Shown here piece by piece: positions 2,398-44,900 of a DNA stretch of 64,000 nt (positions within the stretch are counted from its first letter, which is position 1; each line of letters opens with the position of its first letter). The notes under the pieces are model-generated. The model was given only the letters and a program-made list of their open reading frames with translations, had not been told where the DNA came from and did not search any database. Origin of the DNA: Somniosus microcephalus (Eukaryota). Position numbers and translations under genes: made by a program. The DNA lies in NCBI GenBank assembly GCA_052327205.1, contig CM126222.1, positions 47,492,001 to 47,556,000 on the forward strand, read 5' to 3'.

Positions 2398-3594
2398 ACT
2401 GATTAAACAGTTTTCAAAAATTAACTGGCGACTTTTCAAAAAGGCTATCTGTTTAATGTATGAAAGAGGAAGTGCATTAAAACCAAAATATAGTAATTTT
2501 TATTCGCTGCCTTCATTTTCTAGTAACTCAGTACACCAGGGAACAAACCTGGGAACTTCCTGTTCCGTGTGACTCACCACATCCGGAGGTGTACTTACCT
2601 GCCATTGAAGAAGACATACATTTTGATTTTATTATTTTTACATTACCTATTATGCGCACTGTCACAAAGTATTAGAGCAATTAGTACAAACCAAAGCAGT
2701 CAACTTGCATTCCATGACTGTGGGCGGGTTTAATCTATTGGGAGGCCAGATTTGCACACTAATAAAAGTAATTTTAATAAACTGGCAACAATCTATACTG
2801 GTGATTATTGTAAACAATATTGCTGTGCAGTTGTTATATACCTTTAATTAGACACTATAGCTTTCGCACAATTTGAAAATTAAATTGACAAACTAGTGAT
2901 TTATAATGTGGCCATTAAAGGCCAGCCATCATGCAGAAGGGTTTTTGTGCAAATTTAAAATAAATAAAACAGTTGGTTTGAAAGAGGATACTGCAGTTGT
3001 TTGTGTGTAATTACACACTCACTTTACGCAGAACAAGGTTGGCAGAGGCTGTGGAGATGTGCTCAGTCATTCTCCAGGAGCCTGTGGTTCCTGGTCCTAG
3101 AAGATAACAAGTGGAGAAATTAATGTATCTTCAAAAATTAAGCTCAGTTGCAAGGTAATTTGATAACAACAGCCAACGTGCATATTAGACCTGTGAGCCA
3201 CAGTGAACTGAGCACAAACACGACAATCCAATGTGACTCAGTTAATGAAGTAATAAATTGTAGCAGTCAGGAGGAAAAACATAAGCATTAAAATATGCAT
3301 ATAAAAATTGCAAGGCATTGCTGGAAACAATATAACATAACCAAATGTTATCCTTGAAGGATGAATGATAGCTTCAGGGTCCCTGTTGTTTTCATTGGGA
3401 GCTGCTGATCTCTATCAAAAGCGAAAGAAATCCATTATTTCTAACTCGAAGTTAATTGATTTTTAACCAATACTTGTGTTGCCTGAGTTACAGCTACCTC
3501 ACTGCAGTGGCTCAATCTGCATTTCCTAATTGCTGAAGTTGCAAAAGGCAACCCATTTTATGTTGAATACAGTATATTTTTCCTTTTGTTGCAG

Positions 3595-3983
3595 GACAAT
3601 GTAGAAAGGGTAGATGCCCTCCAGACGTCTGTTGAAGAATTCATTGAGAAGTATGAGAAACCGTATAAGCCTGTAGTGCTGGTAAATGCTGAGCATGGGT
3701 GGGCAGCGCACGAAAAGTGGACACTGGAGCGGTTAAAGCGCAAGTACAGAAATCAAAAATTTAAATGCGGGGAAGACAACGATGGCTACTCTGTTAAAAT
3801 GAAGATGAAGTATTATGCCGACTACATGGAAACTACAAAAGATGATAGTCCTCTTTACATTTTTGATAGCAGCTATGGGGAGCACCCGAAAAGGAGGAAA
3901 CTGTTAGAGGATTATGAAGTGGCAAAGTATTTCAGGGATGATTTATTCCAGTTTGCAGGGGAAAAGCGAAGGCCTCCATACAG
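3595..3983 (+). CDS. JMJD6: JMJD6 (JmjC arginine demethylase / lysyl hydroxylase) coding exon 2
   Basis: ttttgttgcag acceptor, AG|gtaac donor, 389 bp. Encodes [10 protein letters not shown]...[34 protein letters not shown]...[22 protein letters not shown]...GEKRRPPYR, recognisably JMJD6. Confidence 0.98.
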
Positions 3984-5089
3984 GTAACAGCACTTAAACA
4001 ACCAACCTTGGTGATTAATTGTTAGAAAGCAGTAATGTAGGTCAGTGTGTACAGAGTACCTCCTCCTGTATCCCATAGCTTTCATGTCGGATTTCTAGCG
4101 TGACAGAGCAGGCCTTAGTTGGAGAGCTCTTTTAGAGCCCGAGAGACCGACATTCCATTCAAGCAAAAGTGATGAGCTCTGTTAATGTCGGGCAGTAGAT
4201 GCTTGTGCAGCACGTCAGCCGCCTAGCTGAGCAGTTAGCAAATGTTAGTCTCTTTCATCAGACAAATCAGGAAAGTGTCTTTGTCTTGTTAATCCTCAGT
4301 GAGTTCTGCAGCATGCACAGGAAAACCTGTGGATTGTGCCTGAATGTTTTTTAAAAACTGGCCACGATGATGGAACTATTCAGAACGATGCCCTTCCAAT
4401 GTCTTGCTGATCAAAGTGGTGAATACAAATGACAAATTTAGAAAACATGCAAATAATCAAGTTTATTTTAAGAAAAGGGCCAAGTATCTATAGATTACAG
4501 ACAAGTAGTGTTTTCATGTGTATGGGATCAAAGCACAAATGGAAATGAGTGCACTATCCTGCAAATCTATTTTTTCAAGTGTCCCATTATATTTCTGTTG
4601 ACCCTGATTATAACCATTCACAAACACTAAAACTTTATTCAGGGAAAGCTTTCCTAAATGCTGGAATGTAATTAAGAACCTCAAGCCAGTTAAAGCACCC
4701 CACTCAAGTCAGCTCAGCTGTCTTGATACTACAGTATAAAGCATATTGGATTATTCATTTTGATCATATAAACTAGTCTGTCTGAAGAAATGCCTTCTCG
4801 CTGGAGTTACTTTTTTGTAAATGTTGTGCTCATCGAGCTGAGAGATGCTAGAGAAAGGAATGCTTCAATTTCGGGCATGCAGTGTCAGCATCAAGAATTC
4901 TGAGGTCAGGTAAAGTGTGGTTAACTGCAGAGGAAATCTTCCTCTACTCTGTCCCAAAAATATACCTGAAACCCCAACCTCAGAAGGTCATGTCTAACTG
5001 CACCTGTGTGACAACTTCATTTCCCACACCAGCTATTCTGTTGAACTTTGGCCTCGTATCTTGGAATTAGATCAAGAGAACGGCCGAAC

Positions 5090-36173: not shown

Positions 36174-37750
36174 ATAGCCTGCTAGGAATCTCAAACCTCA
36201 ATTCAGTTGAGTGGTTTTGTTTCGTTTCCAAGATCTTCTGTGGGGAAGATCTAGTGGTCATTCAAAAGGCTTAATTGCAGTTTCAGATTGAAAGGCCAGA
36301 TCCTTGCTTAATCTGCATCTGCTTGTTTTAGTTCTTTGCTATCTAATGATGCACAGTCCAGCCCTATGGTGAGAAATGATATTGGTGTTTGCACAGTGAG
36401 GAATATTCATTTAGACAAGGAGTGCATTTTCTCTGATTGATTGGCTAGGATGTTGATTCTAAACCTTCAGGTAAAAGTCATAGTTTGTGCAGCAATGTTT
36501 TTGAATTCTAAATGAATCTGCAGGAGTAAAACCTTTTTTAGAATTGATATGTATTCAGTGGCAAGCCCCCTTTTTAAAAGTGTCCTATGTTAGCCCTTGA
36601 AGCATAATGGCCACAAAGCTGAAATAAACTAAATGATTCTCCTCCAGTCTAGGTAAGAATTCCCTTGTCCATTAACCTTGGTAATCCTTTTTGCAGGTCC
36701 AAATACTATTCCTATTGCCTTTTCTGTTTTTTGCAAACTTTACAGCATTTTTTGCAAATTCAGTTTTTCATTTATGCTTGAAGACTTGTGGATGTCATGT
36801 TGGCCATTGACAGCTTTTGCATGCTTGAATGGCCTGAAATAGTCCAGTTTTTCCCTGAACATTACCGAATTGATTCCAATCCTATGTTAGACTGGCATGA
36901 GGTGCCATGTTTACAAAACATTGCGAGCACTTTGCACTTTGTCTAAAAAGGCATAAATCTGTTTATGCTGAAAAGCAAGCTCCACTGAATCACAATCCTG
37001 CCTCGAAGGGGAAAAATATTAAACCTAGTTGATGTCCACTCTGGTTCCAGTATGAGCCAAGAGAAAAGTTTGGTTTTTTTTCCTCCAATTAACTAGTTTT
37101 GTTTTAAATTGAACTGACAATGGGGTGTGAATCTACCATTTTGATTCTGTTGGTTAGTGAATGTATTCAATGTCCACTTCATTCATGTTGCCACTAGTCA
37201 ATCTCTCAACTGAAGGCAACTTTTAATGTGCAGGGTTTTTTGTTTTAAACTAACTTCACTGACTTTGAATTCAATAAAAGGTGTCTGCCATTTTGGGAAG
37301 GGGGGGAAATTTTTTTTTTATATAATGTGAATGACAGCATACCATGTGTTTATAAACTGTAGGAGGAAGCTTACCCAGACCTCTTATTCCTTCTCCCCCC
37401 CCCCCCCCCCCCACCTCCTCCACTTTGGGTTTTGGGATCTGCAAGAGTGTGAATGTACAACAAATGTCAATGCTGCCTATTATCACCTAACAGCCAAATT
37501 TGTCATGTGGCCCAATTGAAAGCTAGTGGTGATTGTGTGTTTACACACTAAAGTCTCTGGCTGTAAGTCTTACATTTTTTAAGTTCAGCTGGGCAGCCTG
37601 AACCAAATTCCTCCTAGGAACATGCTCAGTGCAGAAATAAAGCTAATGGGAGAAATAAAAACAGTTGGAGGTGCAGGAAAATATGCTGCTCCAACTGGGG
37701 GTTGGTCACATTGGGTAGAGCAGAGGGAACTTTATTTTCTATCTGCCCAA

Positions 37751-38006
37751 TGTGATGAAATATTCCATCATCACTCATCAGTATTTCTCTGCCTGTGGTT
37801 GGTTTCAGTTTCATTTCCATTGTATTGTACTGTGTGTAGGGCTCCGCCCATACCTGGCTCCTATGTAAGCTGGCCCAGCTTGCAGCACATCCAGTACGGC
37901 AGACCTCTGGATGGAAGATACATTCTCCTGTGTGTTACCTTCTAAGTCAATAAAAGCCTTGTTTTGTTTTGCTAACATCGAGTCTCTGATCTATTGAGGC
38001 ACATCA
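37751..38006 (+). repeat. 5' LTR (256 bp)
   Basis: tgtgatgaaatattcc...gaggcacatca, AATAAA at 37949-37954. Direct repeat of 41702-41969. Confidence 0.93.
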
Positions 38007-38032
38007 ATTTTATTGACTTAATTTTCAACACA

Positions 38033-38886
38033 ATGGATCAACTCTTGAAACCCGAACGTTTGGATTTGGACCAGCATGCTTCGGACACATCGGCACGCTT
38101 CGGACACTGGTTTATGTGTATGGAATTCTTCCTGGACAATTCCGCAGCCGTCAAAGACGCTACAGACGCTGCGAGTATGAAACTCGGAATTCTGCGGAAT
38201 TGGGTAAGCCACCGGGTTTACCCCCTCATCCAAGACGCCGACACGTACCCGGCCGCCTGCGACATCTTAAAGGCACATTACCAGCAGCCTACGAATGAGG
38301 TGTATGCTAGGTACCTACTCGCGCACAACGACCTGGGGAATCGGTGGAGGAGTTCCTAGGCACCCTGAAAACGCTTGGCAAAGACTGCAAGTGCCAAGAT
38401 GTAAAAGCCGCAGTGTACAATGACGAGCTTGTTCGCGATGCCTTTATCACAAGCCTCAGCTCCACTTACATCCGGCAGAGACTGCTGGAAAAAACGGGAT
38501 TGGACCTGAAACAGGCTGCGGACACAGCACGATCCCTGGATGTGGCCCAGAGAAACTCGGACGCCTACTCTTCAGTCCACGTTGCCACGTGTGCACCAAG
38601 GGCGCCGCCATCTTGGAAGGCATCTTCCCAGCCCGACACTGTCGGGGGGCCCCCCCCCCCCACCACCGGAAGCCCTACGAGAGCCGTGACGCGTCGGGGA
38701 CCCAACTGCTACTTCTGTGGGCAGCCGAAGCACACCAGAAACCTGTGCCCGGCGAAAGGCACCACCTGCTTTAAGTGCGGTAAGAAGGGGCACTTCGGGA
38801 AAGTGTGCAGAGGGAACCCTGCCGGAAAACCCGCCACCGCCGCGTGTGCGCTGTGGAGCGGCCATCTTGGACGCCATCTTGCCTGA
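38033..38886 (+). pseudogene. gag, disrupted, with two zinc knuckles
   Basis: MDQLLKPERLDLD..., frameshift near 38330, LVRDAFITSLSSTYIRQRLLE, CYFCGQPKHTRNLCPAKGTTCFKCGKKGHFGKVC. Confidence 0.9.
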
Positions 38887-38949
38887 CCTCGTGGGGTCTG
38901 CCATCTTGTGAGCAGACAGCGTGGACGCCATCTTGCCTCGATCAGGGCC

Positions 38950-41691
38950 CAAGTGGCATCGGTCACAGTGGACCAGACCAGGCCGCACCCGCTATCCAAA
39001 TCAATGGTAGACATCAAGGTAACGGGTGCAGGGTTAAATGTTTAATTGACAGTGGAAGCAGTTTTATCCACCCTGAACTGGTACAACAACTCTCCCTAAA
39101 GGTGGTCCCTACTCGGGGTACCATCTCCATGGCTGATAAAACCCAGACATTGACCATTATGGGTTACTGCACGGTACAATTGTCCGTTAACGGAACTGTA
39201 TACGATAATTTTAAAGTATTAATCATGAAGAATCTATGTGCGAGCGTGATCTTGGGCCTGGATTTCCAGTGCTACCACCAAAGCATCACGCTCAATTACA
39301 GTGGGTCCCAGCCGCCCCTCAGTGTGCGGTCTGGCTACCCTGAAGATAAAGCCGCCTTCGCTATTCGCGAACCTTACCCCTAACTGCCGGCCAATAGTGA
39401 CCAAAAGCAGGAGGTACAGCTGGGAGGACAGGCGGTTTATCGCGACCGAGGTAGACAGGCTCCTGAGCGCATTATTGAACGCAGCAATAGCCCGTGGCGT
39501 GCCCAAGTGGTGGTGGTAAGGGGTAGCGAAGAAACGGATGGTGATCGACTATAGCCAAACGATCAACAGGTATGCCTACCCGCTACCCCGCATATCTGAA
39601 ATGGTGAACCAAATCGCCCAATACTGGGTGTTCTCCACCATCGACCAAGTCCGCGTACCACCGGCTCCCTAGAGGACCGCCCGTACACCGCCTTCGAGGC
39701 GAACGGATGCCTCTACCAATTCCTCAGTCCCCTTTGGGGTGACGAATGGGGTCTCTGTCTTCCAGAGGGAGATGGACCACATGGTCGATGACCACCACTT
39801 GCAGGCAACCTTCCCCTACCTCGACAGCGTCACCATCTGCGGTCACAACCAGCAGGATCACGACTCGAACCTCGAGGTTCCTAAAAACCGCACAAAAACT
39901 CAACCTCACCTACAACGAGGACAAGTGCGTTTACAACACCACGCGCCTCTGCATACTAGGCAGCGTGGTGGAGAATGGGGAAATCGGACCAGACCCCCAC
40001 CAATTGCGCCCCCTACGGGAGCTGCCCCTGCCCAACACTCCCAAAGCCCTGAAAAGGTGCCTGGGGTTATTTTCTTATTATTCCCAATGGGTCCCCAACT
40101 ACTCTGACAAAGCCCGCCCCCTCTTGAAAGCATCTTTTCTGCTCTCTGCTGAGGCCCATGCCGCCTTCAAAAGCATTAAGCAGGATATTGAGTGGGCCAC
40201 GCTACAGGCAGTGGACGAGAACACTCCCTTTCAAGTGGAAAGTGATGCGTCTGACTTTGCCTTGGCGGCCACTCAACCAGGCGGGGCGGCCCGTAGCTTT
40301 CTTCTCGAGGACCCTCCAAGGGCCCGAGATCAGACACTCCTCCGTGGAAAAGGAGGCCCAAGCCATCGTGGAGGCAGTGCGCCACTGGCGCCACTACCTA
40401 GCCGGCAAACGCTTCACCCTACTTACCGACCAGTGGTCGGTAGCGTTTATGTTCAATAATAAACAGAGGGGGAAGATTAAAAATAAGATTCTTAGGTGGC
40501 GGATCGAGCTCTCCACCTTCGAGTATGACATTTACCGGCCAGGGGCCCTTAACAAATCCCCCGACGCCCTCACGAGGGATGTGTGCCAGCGCCACCGGGG
40601 ATCGGCTACAGACCCTCCACAATGACCTCTGCCACCCAGGGGTCACGTGGCTGTTCCACTTCATAAAGTCCCGCAACGTACCCTACTCGATTGAGGAAGT
40701 TCGGTCTCTGACCAGGAACTGCCACACTTGCGCTGAGTGCAAGCCTCGGTTCTACCGCCCAGATAGAGCCCACTTAATCAAAGCTACACGGCCCTTTGAG
40801 CGGCTCAGCTTAGATTTCAAGGGCCCCCATCCCGTCCGACTGCAATGTTTACTTCCTGAACATTGTGGACGAATACTCCCGGTTCCCATTCGCCTTCCCC
40901 TGCCCAGACATGACCAGCGCCATGGTCATTAAATGCCTCAACAGCCTGTTCGGTATGCCGAGCTACATCCATACGGATAGGGGGGCGTCCTTCATGAGTG
41001 AAGAGCTACGCCAGTACATGCTGTCCAGGGGGATCGCCACGAGCCGTACCACCAGCTACAACCCCTGGGGTAACGGTCAAGTGGAGCGAGAGAACGGGAC
41101 AGTATGGAAAGCAGTCACTAGCTGTAAGGACCAAAGGCCTCCCTATCTCCCGCTGGCAGGAAGTCCTCCCAGATGTGCTCCATTCGATACGGTCGCTATT
41201 GTGTACTACCACTAATGCCACGCCTCATGAGCGAATGTTTGTCTTTCCCCGGAAATCCACCTCGGGCGTATCCATGCCGTCATGGCTCTCCACCCCAGGT
41301 CCGGTATTCGTGCGAAGGCATGAGGGGCCACAAGACGGACCCTCTCGTGGAGTCAGTGCACCTACTCCACGCCAACCCCCAATACGCGCATGTCCGGCAC
41401 GCCGACGGAAGGGAGGACACCGTGTCCATAAAAGACATCGCCCCAGCCGGTAACGGCGACAACCACAACAGCAACGACCACGGCAACTCTTACCCACCCA
41501 CTACTCTTTCATCACCCCCGGAAGAACACTGACCAATGGTACCCCCACCAACTACCCCTTCAACAACCCTGGCGGCACCCCCGGCAGAGACCCAGGAGGC
41601 CACCGGGGACACCCAGCCGACACCAGTGGCACCACAACAGCCACGTCGGTCGCAGAGGACTATCAAACCCCTGAACAGACTAAATCTATAG
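38950..41691 (+). pseudogene. pol (protease, RT, RNase H, integrase), multiply frameshifted
   Basis: PR CLIDSGS and ILGLDF; RT PFGVTNG..FQR and YLDSV; RH ESDASDFAL, EKEAQAIVEAV, TDQ; IN H-x4-H..CHTC, LDFKGP, DEYSRFPFA, HTDRG, NGQVERENG. Confidence 0.92.
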
Positions 41692-41701
41692 AAGGGGTGA
41701 A
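41690..41701 (+). other. polypurine tract
   Basis: agaaggggtgaa immediately 5' of the 3' LTR. Confidence 0.8.
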
Positions 41702-41969
41702 TGTGATGAAATATTCCATTCATCACTCATCAGTATTTCTCTGCCTGTGACTGTGGTTGGTTTCAGTTTCATTTCCATTGTACTGTGTGTAGGGCTCCGC
41801 CCATACCTGGCTCCATACCTGGCTCCTATGTAAGCTGGCCCAGCCTGCAGCACATCCAGTACGGCAGACCTCTGGATGGAAGATACATTCTCCTCTGTTA
41901 CCTTCTAAGTCAATAAAAGCCTTGTTTTGTTTCGCTAACATCGAGTCTCGGATTTTTTGAGGCACATCA
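41702..41969 (+). repeat. 3' LTR (268 bp)
   Basis: tgtgatgaaatattcc...gaggcacatca, AATAAA at 41912-41917. Differs from the 5' LTR by small indels and a few substitutions. Confidence 0.93.
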
Positions 41970-44900
41970 CCCAGGCTATAACTGACCAGTATATTTGGAG
42001 TATCTAAAATTGGAGTGTTCCATTCCTCAGCATTGACTACTCTTGCCTCAACCAGTACAGTAGTTAGCCACCGAGTATTGCTGGGAATATGGTTTTATTT
42101 GGAGGGGTCAAAAAATCTGGATATTTTGTGGAGCTGTCTGATCCTATTGGGCAGTTTTGTGAGAATTCTTGGTAATATACTCCCTATTGAGGCAGAGACC
42201 CCCTTTAGGAATCACTAATAGTTAACCACGGGAGTGTGATGAAGCTTGGGAGTGCCACTACTTTCTTTCCACCCTCATCTAGTTTTGTTCCCCCCCCCCC
42301 CCCCCACCCAACTAACTACCAAGAATGTGATTTTTATTACTCAAGGTCAATTGGACCAGGGAATGGGGGTTGGGGTGAAATTCTGTTACTGTGCGCGTGT
42401 GGCAACTGCTGAGCCACCTCTTTACCATGAGGAAACAGTGAGATGGTAGGTGCCAGTGTTGCTATTGACAGCCTGCTTTGTTTATGCAACATACTGCTAT
42501 TTATTTATTAAATGGACTAACTTAACTTGTGAACACATGAATTGTACCATTTACTTCATGTTGCAATTTAGAGTCTAGCTTTGGATCTCCATGCTAACAA
42601 GCAATGCAAAAGATCAATCGAGTTGGGTAATCCAAAGCAAATAAGGAGATGCAGTAATAGAGCAATATAAATGTTGAAAAAGAAATGAGTGGGCTACCTT
42701 TGTTGGTATTTGTGGATATTCACATGCTAATTTGTGAAGTTCAGTAATGGCTAAAACTATCGTGATTGAACAAGGATATTATGACTTTAAATGGGACAAA
42801 TTAAATAGGGAATGTTTGCTGTTTGTAATTGTGTAATTAGAAATGTTATCAGGAGTTTATTAACAGTGGCAGAATTTATTTCATTTCCAATTGTTGACTA
42901 GATCCATTGTGTGGGGATTGAAGACTATTGTACAGTTATAACTTGATATTGAGAATCATCCATGTTTGAACTAATGTAAAAATTAATGGTTGTGAAAATT
43001 AGCCTTTCTTAAATTGCTTTACATGCAACCTGAAAAATGTAATCTTTAGGGATGATGTGTACAGCACTAACAGATTAGGCAATGCATAGGAATGAATCTA
43101 ATGTCTGACTTGAGTCATGTGCTTTCATAGTCTTTGGCTATGATTGATTATAACTGGGTTACTAGGCATGTTTCTAGGTCCAGGCATTTTTCCTTCCTGG
43201 AGGTTTTCCATAAATTTACTTGAATTCATTAAGGTTTTGGAATGCCATCTGAAAGGATAATGCTTCACATGATTTGTTGCATGGCCTTTTTTATCCCTCT
43301 GGTTTGCTCAAATTGCTTCTGTGGTGTCTCAAATTTTGGTTGGCTGTTGGCCCCAACATATTTGAATTGTTTGCATTTCAAATGATTTTGGGACAAGCCA
43401 AACTGAGTAATGCTTTTAATCATTGCAGTTAATAAGTGGAATATATACTCATTGGATTTTAAGCTTCAAAGTTGGAGCGGATGTGGGCTGCAGAATTCTG
43501 AATCTGGAGGTTATGAAACGAGTGAGGAAAGTATTGGACAGGTCAATCCCTCGGTGATGGTGTGGGAGAGAATAGGGATGTATGTGGGCAGTGTTCCAGA
43601 AATGGAAGATTGCAATCCTAGTGACAAACTGGATATGTGGTGATGAGCTCAGTAGCTGGTCAAATAGCATGCTGAATCTTGGCACTGTTGAATTTAGCTT
43701 TGGGGCAATCTAGGCCAAAGGTGTTAGTAAGACTTTTTAATTAATGACTCCTCCATGACTTGACTGTTCAGTTAAAGAACAGCAGCATTGGAGGTGGAAT
43801 TGGGTGTGACTGGCAGATTTGTGGAAGCCTACCCCTGGAATGAGGTGGCAGCTCATCACCACTAGTATATCGCTATAATAATATGGATTTTTTTTTTTGT
43901 TCAGCTTTAAAATAAACATACCCAATAATTTGGATAAGTTTAAGTTGGTTAATATTACCTTTTTAATAAATTTGAAGAAAAACCACAACCTGTTTTATAA
44001 AGGTACCAAGCCAAATAAATTTGGACGTGAGCACTTGGCAGAAAAACTCAACTCTTCAAAAACACATTCATTGAAGTAACTGCAACAGAGGATGAACAAG
44101 ATTTGAATTCTAACCCTAGTAACTGACGAGAGGATTTTTTAAATGTATAACCAGTCTGGTGAGATGCTTCTGGTCTTCCCAGCATTGTTAAACAATCTGA
44201 TGCATGCGATCTACCATGCCAGAGATCAATTGAATCCGCTATCTTGATCCAAAATTTCAAACTTCTGGTAATTCTGCAGGATAGATAATCGTGAACCCTT
44301 TCTCCTGGAAATGCTAGGCTGATTGGGTAATTGGGTCTCTGGTAGATCTGTACAATTGGCCACACTGAAATATCAGGATGAGGTGTTTCTGAATCATGCT
44401 GTCTAGAATGTGATCAACCAAGCGGCAGTAAGTTCAGCATACAGTGGTAACCTGAAGCAGCTTTATTAATGCAGCTGAAAATGGTTTTTGTGTCCAGTCA
44501 ACTACCTGGGTGTAATCTGATTTTAAATAACTAACTTTAAAAAAAAACTGTGCAATAACAGTAGTTTTAGTAAATTAAATATTTTAATAATTAAAAGGTT
44601 GGTGTCCTTGCCCAATAAAATCAGCATAATTAAGATCCTCAAAGGTCTCCATGTGGGTGCCATTAGCAGAAACTCACCATGGTGAATAATTTTGATCTGG
44701 GGTGTGGCCAGTTTTGTGGGTGGGACTGGCTTACAGCGCAATGTTTTTAAAACTAGTGCAAAAATCTCACACGCTTGCAATTTCTCTTGCACTAGTTTGG
44801 CTTTTTAATTTTGGGCAAATTGTTAAAACCAGCACAAAATGGCAGAAGCTCTAACCACTGGTCTTTTTTGAGCCAATTAACCTCCGTACTTCTAGGTTTA

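Follow-up and report, generated by a model that had tools for sequence, protein, structure and literature searches.

Self-priming of reverse transcription among Gypsy elements is tied, in the accessible text of PMC6317226, to the Tf1/sushi chromoviruses. In the yeast element Tf1, for which self-priming has been demonstrated experimentally, the mechanism involves an 11-nt primer and an RNase H cut (PMC7175516, 10.1101/2022.12.06.519325), and the second of these reports (10.1101/2022.12.06.519325) also describes a 'pretzel' structure of the Tf1 leader. The same kind of complementarity has led to the prediction of self-priming for plant Tcn1 (Gypsy) and for TAR, Houba and Osr-1 (Copia), and with TAR the prediction extends outside the chromoviruses too (PMC6317226). 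Skipper has neither a primer-binding site (PBS) nor an LTR complement (PMC5006619). A full-text search of the literature, with subscription journals and Repbase reports outside its scope, returned no description of self-priming by any animal Gypsy clade outside the chromoviruses within the text that was accessible, and no such clade is described in the available parts of PMC12440569, PMC3601003, PMC4600332, PMC3670739 and PMC5341516.

Here we describe a Gypsy element of 4,219 nt from the window (the whole 64,000-nt stretch of DNA analysed), which belongs, as a decayed copy, to a widespread Gypsy clade outside the chromoviruses. It has the features of a Ty3/Gypsy LTR retrotransposon, namely TG...CA LTRs, a target-site duplication (TSD), a polypurine tract and the order Gag-PR-RT-RH-IN, the domain order of the window element being taken from a sister copy, L061. 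Most sister copies are likewise flanked by 5-bp TSDs. Small indels are frequent both against L061 (40 gap openings in 4.3 kb, with the coding region 91% identical) and between the two LTRs (243 matches, 6 mismatches and 5 gaps), and represent either real decay or assembly error. Coordinates of the features are collected in Table 1.

Table 1. Features of the Gypsy element at window positions 37751-41969 and of its flanks.
Feature	Position	Strand	Remarks
5' target-site duplication	37746..37750	+	5 bp; differs from the 3' copy at one base
5' LTR	37751..38006	+	256 nt, TG...CA
LTR arm, predicted self-primer	37943..37955	+	complementary to the primer-binding position; putative primer
AATAAA poly(A) hexamer within the arm	37949..37954	+	sequence
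Predicted second helix, 5' strand	37956..37961	+	begins one base after the arm
Predicted second helix, 3' strand	37995..38000	+	in U5; incomplete in the MFE fold of 37930-38045
Predicted cleavage point	junction 37955/37956	+	beside the predicted second helix
Primer-binding position, self-complementary	38008..38020	+	starts 2 nt past the LTR end
gag-pol region	38033..41691	+	Gag, protease, RT, RNase H, integrase; many frameshifts and stops in the window copy
Two CCHC knuckles of Gag	about 38707-38808	+	
RT catalytic motif	39817..39828	+	YLDS in the window copy; YLDN in sister copies
Polypurine tract	41690..41701	+	sequence; sister copies similar
3' LTR	41702..41969	+	268 nt; second arm copy at 41906-41918
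3' target-site duplication	41970..41974	+	

A preliminary description of this DNA had proposed that the element lacks a tRNA primer site and carries in its place a complement of its own LTR, and the positions given there proved right. The 5' LTR ends in CA and is followed by a single A (38007), after which the primer-binding position is the exact reverse complement of the arm, with the match ending at 13 nt on either side. AATAAA is part of the paired stretch, the arm's 13-mer recurs in the 3' LTR, no TGG follows the LTR and the gag ATG opens the coding region at 38033. When the LTR was shuffled 20,000 times with dinucleotides preserved, a stretch beginning at most 4 nt from the LTR end never found a complement of 12 nt or longer (longest 11), and 20 of 20,000 random window positions reached at least 13 nt. 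When the RNA of 37930-38045 is folded, the 13-bp helix appears in both the MFE and the centroid structure (-24.8 kcal/mol, z -2.7). The element thus carries the feature by which the Tf1/sushi group is recognized, a primer site complementary to its own 5' LTR; with this group it shares a complementarity of at least 11 nt placed directly after the terminal CA, and with Tf1, Tf2 (Schizosaccharomyces pombe), Tj1 and Tf1/sushi at large it has in common the Gypsy domain order and the lack of a tRNA site.

The feature is real and is conserved in the clade. In the searched genome (6.4 Gb), all 13 pairs are kept in 28 of the 30 closest copies, and in sister subfamilies the arm and the primer site change together. 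At the pair 37948/38015 the genomic copies show C:G (1,024), T:A (3,793), C:A (8) and T:G (14), so that 4,817 of 4,839 copies have a Watson-Crick pair; since copies share descent, these counts are not independent events, and they are a measure of stability rather than of thousands of separate changes. RNA reads from a related species vary on both sides of the same pair (C to T at 37948, G to A at 38015). At a second variable pair (arm position -9), a changed arm base is compensated in 32 of 48 copies on three loop backgrounds, with 10 of the 32 compensated copies being tandem repeats on two contigs. The first A of the hexamer is changed in 12 copies and compensated in the PBS in none of them. 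Outside the hexamer, changes that are compensated therefore spread, and those at this hexamer base do not.

Conservation beyond this genome was followed through a homolog search which returned 2,987 proteins. Over RT-RNase H the best 120 of these show 60-80% identity; named homologs belong to rays, catsharks, Actinostola, Ischnura and Trichuris (the last three being a sea anemone, a damselfly and a nematode). The closest of the named proteins are those of rays and catsharks, which makes a cartilaginous fish the probable host. With a 59-sequence alignment as query, 80 metagenome loci (the best 80 of 522) and 9 loci in prokaryotic metagenome-assembled genomes (MAGs) were added to the window element and 20 loci of its own genome, making 110 loci. 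A gag start was missing in 38; of the other 72, two were excluded as too short and seven for lack of a CA-N-TT motif, and 63 junctions were left, in which the LTR end was set by the LTR pair (35) or by the motif (28). With the primer site set at LTR end +2, at least 11 of 13 positions pair in 58 of the 63 junctions, despite differing letters. Among distinct arm/PBS pairs, 27 of 42 are perfect and positions 4-13 each show two to four pair types, while cross-family pairings of arm and PBS reach 13 in only 6 of 1,406 combinations. When the arm was picked on its first 10 nt only, positions 11, 12 and 13 paired in 36, 37 and 34 of 37 cases and position 14 in 20 of 37; the drop at position 14 indicates a conserved duplex of about 13 bp, with pairing extending to 19 bp in some families. 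The loop between the arm and the LTR end varies from 23 to 79 nt while the register stays constant at LTR end +2. The covariation to be expected of the duplex put forward in the preliminary description is thus strong, both within the genome and across distant families.

Low scores at the junctions have several causes. L142 and L160 score 6 solely because their contigs begin at the arm, and show 13 pairs on separate junction scoring; a PBS deletion explains the low score of L119. L129 and L133 pair at only 7 and 9 of 13 positions, and the loci excluded for lack of a CA-N-TT motif include L098, L100, L101, L115 and L163; it is possible that some of these branches (L129, L133, L098, L100, L101, L115 and L163) prime differently. 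L100, L101, L107, L129 and L133 mostly have YLDD and their fold-back was not found or not readable, and they could mark a change of priming mode or of catalytic motif. Clade copies L161-L169, some with both LTRs, lie inside GTDB bacterial MAG records (Ekhidna, Rubritalea and others) and presumably represent eukaryotic host-DNA contamination of the bins. A scan of viral contigs for relatives of the clade found none.

Despite its primer site, the element falls outside the Tf1/sushi group. The Mag-like character of its Gag, noted earlier from the knuckles, is borne out by matches to four Mag-type Gags (E 1e-12 to 1e-16); chromovirus loci give only short, knuckle-length matches. The chromodomain, likewise reported as not visible, is absent, as PF00385 and PF24626 find no match in L061, P0022, P0112 and P0003, all of which carry PR-RT-RH-IN, and both match the control L171. 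In quick trees, built from RT (62 rows) and from RT-RNase H (28 rows), the clade forms a single long branch with good support, distinct from both chromoviruses and Mag, with chromodomain-bearing elements of the same genome standing in for Tf1/sushi and the trees built without named reference sequences. The RT of the clade and that of the chromoviruses fall on separate branches (SH-aLRT 99-100), and a sister relationship of the two is weakly rejected (AU p 0.039, from 13 rows, no mixture model and long branches). In the unrooted, thinly sampled tree the clade RT is not nested among Mag and adjoins it with a support of 87-97. A phylogeny of this kind, which the preliminary description had named as a check, therefore puts the clade outside the chromovirus branch and not inside Mag, with references represented by elements of the same genome. 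This placement suggests that self-priming may have originated here independently of Tf1/sushi.

Several differences from the known groups accompany this placement. In contrast to Tf1/sushi, the clade has no chromodomain and no Tf2-type SH3, its Gag is Mag-like and its catalytic motif is mostly YxDN; its RT is 29-33% identical to that of sushi-like elements of the same genome. Two such sushi-like chromoviruses, L171 and L182, carry a self-complement of 9-11 nt about 160-185 nt inside the LTR, whereas in the clade 23-79 nt separate the arm from the LTR end, and the arm and the poly(A) signal overlap. In the control L182 a TATA-like box precedes the start of the arm by about 30 nt, as expected for Tf1/sushi. 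With the Mag lineage (Mag, SURL) the clade shares a two-CCHC-knuckle Gag of detectable similarity, a compact single-ORF layout and short LTRs. Mag-type elements of the same genome differ from it in having TGG tRNA-type sites, found one base past CA in 8 control elements, together with YLDD, and their RT is 24-31% identical and separated by a long branch. The self-primers predicted in plants differ in lineage, as Tcn1 groups with Tf1/sushi and TAR belongs to Copia.

The anatomy of the clade seems to fit that of Ciona Cigr-1, which has LTRs of about 245 bp and one ORF of about 3.6 kb, and whose Gag resembles that of SURL while its RT is dissimilar. The clade may be the Cigr-1 clade (Ciona) or an unnamed MolGy clade of molluscs. 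In a supplement of PMC6238403, Cigr-1 is placed under 'Mag' but not in any of clades A-C, and the main text of that paper contains neither 'PBS' nor 'priming'. Published supplements, including that of PMC8556966, gave no sequence-level match to a name for the clade in the portions available, and the Atlas returned only generic RT clusters for it.

Asn replaces the second Asp of the catalytic motif (YxDN for YxDD) in 92 of the best 120 homologs, 26 have YxDD and 2 could not be read. YxDN is also found in families with near-identical LTR pairs. A full-text search for YLDN returned no relevant paper.

Properties of the leader were compared in 31 families, chosen by hand as representatives. The local 13-bp helix is predicted to form, if transcribed, with a mean pair probability of at least 0.7 in 30 of them. 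RCC is the sequence directly after the arm in 27 of the 31, and in 26 of these 27 the loop offers a GGY partner (shuffle mean 13.1, maximum 21); in a register control, helices starting 4-5 nt later were equally long on average (4.4 vs 4.4-4.6). The pattern makes a short second helix beside the arm likely as a structural model. A three-duplex 'pretzel' leader in the style of Tf1 was not found as such in the clade, and its central duplex is present. A pyrimidine run leads to AG(T) at -11 to -9, with G at -10 in 36 of 37 and A at -11 in 28 of 37 pairs. The resulting YTAGT-type motif at the 5' end of the arm presumably resembles an initiator, and pairing continues 2 nt past its A. No TATA-like box was found about 30 nt before the arm in the 31 families. 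A splice acceptor, suggested by a pyrimidine tract and AG before the arm, was considered and rejected, since 7 of 37 pairs have TG there. Two RNA-seq runs from a related species cover 37751-38350 with a depth that tracks subfamily divergence and with reads from both strands, and gave no usable signal for a transcript start or a poly(A) site; in one of these runs 19 read ends are piled at 38046.

The arm contains AATAAA or ATTAAA in 23 of the 31 families. Among the remaining 8, three carry a canonical hexamer only in the unpaired loop downstream and five have none, most of the 8 having a one-letter variant in the arm. The suggestion that the same duplex hides the poly(A) signal of the 5' LTR thus fits 23 families and does not extend to the 8 whose paired arm lacks a canonical hexamer, three of which expose one downstream. 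Because of these 8 families, masking looks secondary to priming, and we regard it as probably a second effect of the duplex in most families.

A Tf1-like self-priming from a piece of the element's own RNA, outside the Tf1/sushi group, is in our judgement likely. As the site tracks its own LTR, no fixed or single tRNA could serve it; an LTR element requires a primer at this place, and we infer that the element supplies its own. The fixed +2 register combined with a free loop length also points to priming, which needs this register while masking does not. According to the proposed scheme, transcription would start at the arm or immediately upstream of it (about 37943-37945) and the first 11-13 nt of the RNA would fold onto the primer site. 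RT/RNase H of the element would then cut at 37955/37956, beside the short second helix, and the freed 3' end would prime minus-strand DNA into U5 and R. The same duplex would hide the 5' poly(A) signal, as the arm holds AATAAA in most families, and the copy in the 3' LTR, with no partner nearby, would stay usable. It is plausible to hypothesize that plus-strand synthesis copies the primer, so that the primer site is rewritten from the arm in each cycle, which would explain the ready appearance of compensated variants. The full combination, in which a large animal Gypsy clade acquired self-priming separately from Tf1/sushi, one 13-nt RNA segment acts as transcription start, as poly(A) signal and as primer all at once, each cycle copies the primer site anew from the primer with automatic compensation of arm mutations, and the YxDN RT works, is offered tentatively and may well fail in one of its parts.

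Other readings of the duplex have to be weighed against self-priming from the 5' arm. The duplex might do nothing beyond hiding the poly(A) signal of the 5' LTR, with some other primer starting reverse transcription. The hexamer found in most arms, or its one-letter variant in most of the other families, would agree with this, as would the lack of compensation for changes at the first A of the hexamer, which suggests a constraint on the hexamer itself. However, masking alone leaves the constant start at LTR end +2 unexplained and does not account for the three families with a canonical hexamer just in the unpaired loop or the five with none; moreover, the duplex would fill the sole primer location, which differs among subfamilies of one genome. 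We consider this reading very unlikely. It is conceivable instead that self-priming uses the arm copy in the 3' LTR, or the other RNA of the packaged pair, in which case the 5' arm would belong to a U3 that is not transcribed. Some retroviruses keep their poly(A) signal in U3, the arm contains this signal, so its 3' copy would always be transcribed, and the missing TATA box 30 nt before the arm agrees with such an arrangement. The initiator-like motif at the 5' end of the arm across families and the local helix predicted in nearly all of them speak for the 5' copy, and cutting the 3' copy would be expected to remove the repeat needed for strand transfer; priming by the 3' arm or by a second RNA is thus an unlikely option, though a conceivable one.

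A primer supplied by the host, be it a tRNA, a tRNA half or another small RNA, with the LTR match being incidental, would have precedents in the half-tRNA primers of some Copia lineages (PMC6317226). The preliminary description had held a good tRNA match to be fatal to its proposal; none was found, as host tRNA-Lys(UUU) and tRNA-Cys match the site over at most 5 nt, in a comparison that covered six loci of these two types and so leaves room for other host RNAs. The site lacks TGG and varies among subfamilies, always following its own LTR, and the covariation of arm and primer site largely refutes a host primer, which we regard as extremely improbable. Most of what the search for host tRNAs returned belongs to one tandem tRNA array at about 42.90-43.15 Mb (G000 C24; spacing of about 1.6 kb, more than 50 matches), of which the checked loci are tRNA-Cys.

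If self-priming from the element's own RNA holds, this would be a second clade with tRNA-free priming, abundant and found in animals, and such priming would have evolved, or been kept, more than once; in this genome alone the clade has more than 4,800 matching copies. Its elements would be missed by tRNA-based PBS annotation and might be expected to escape silencing by tRNA fragments at the primer site. The compact leader, with a primer overlapping the poly(A) signal, and the YxDN motif make the system directly testable in vitro. Elsewhere in the window, an open frame at 3487-3987 gives a weak match to Cupin_8 (JmjC-like; E 4e-5), under the curated cut-off, and is possibly an exon of a host gene.
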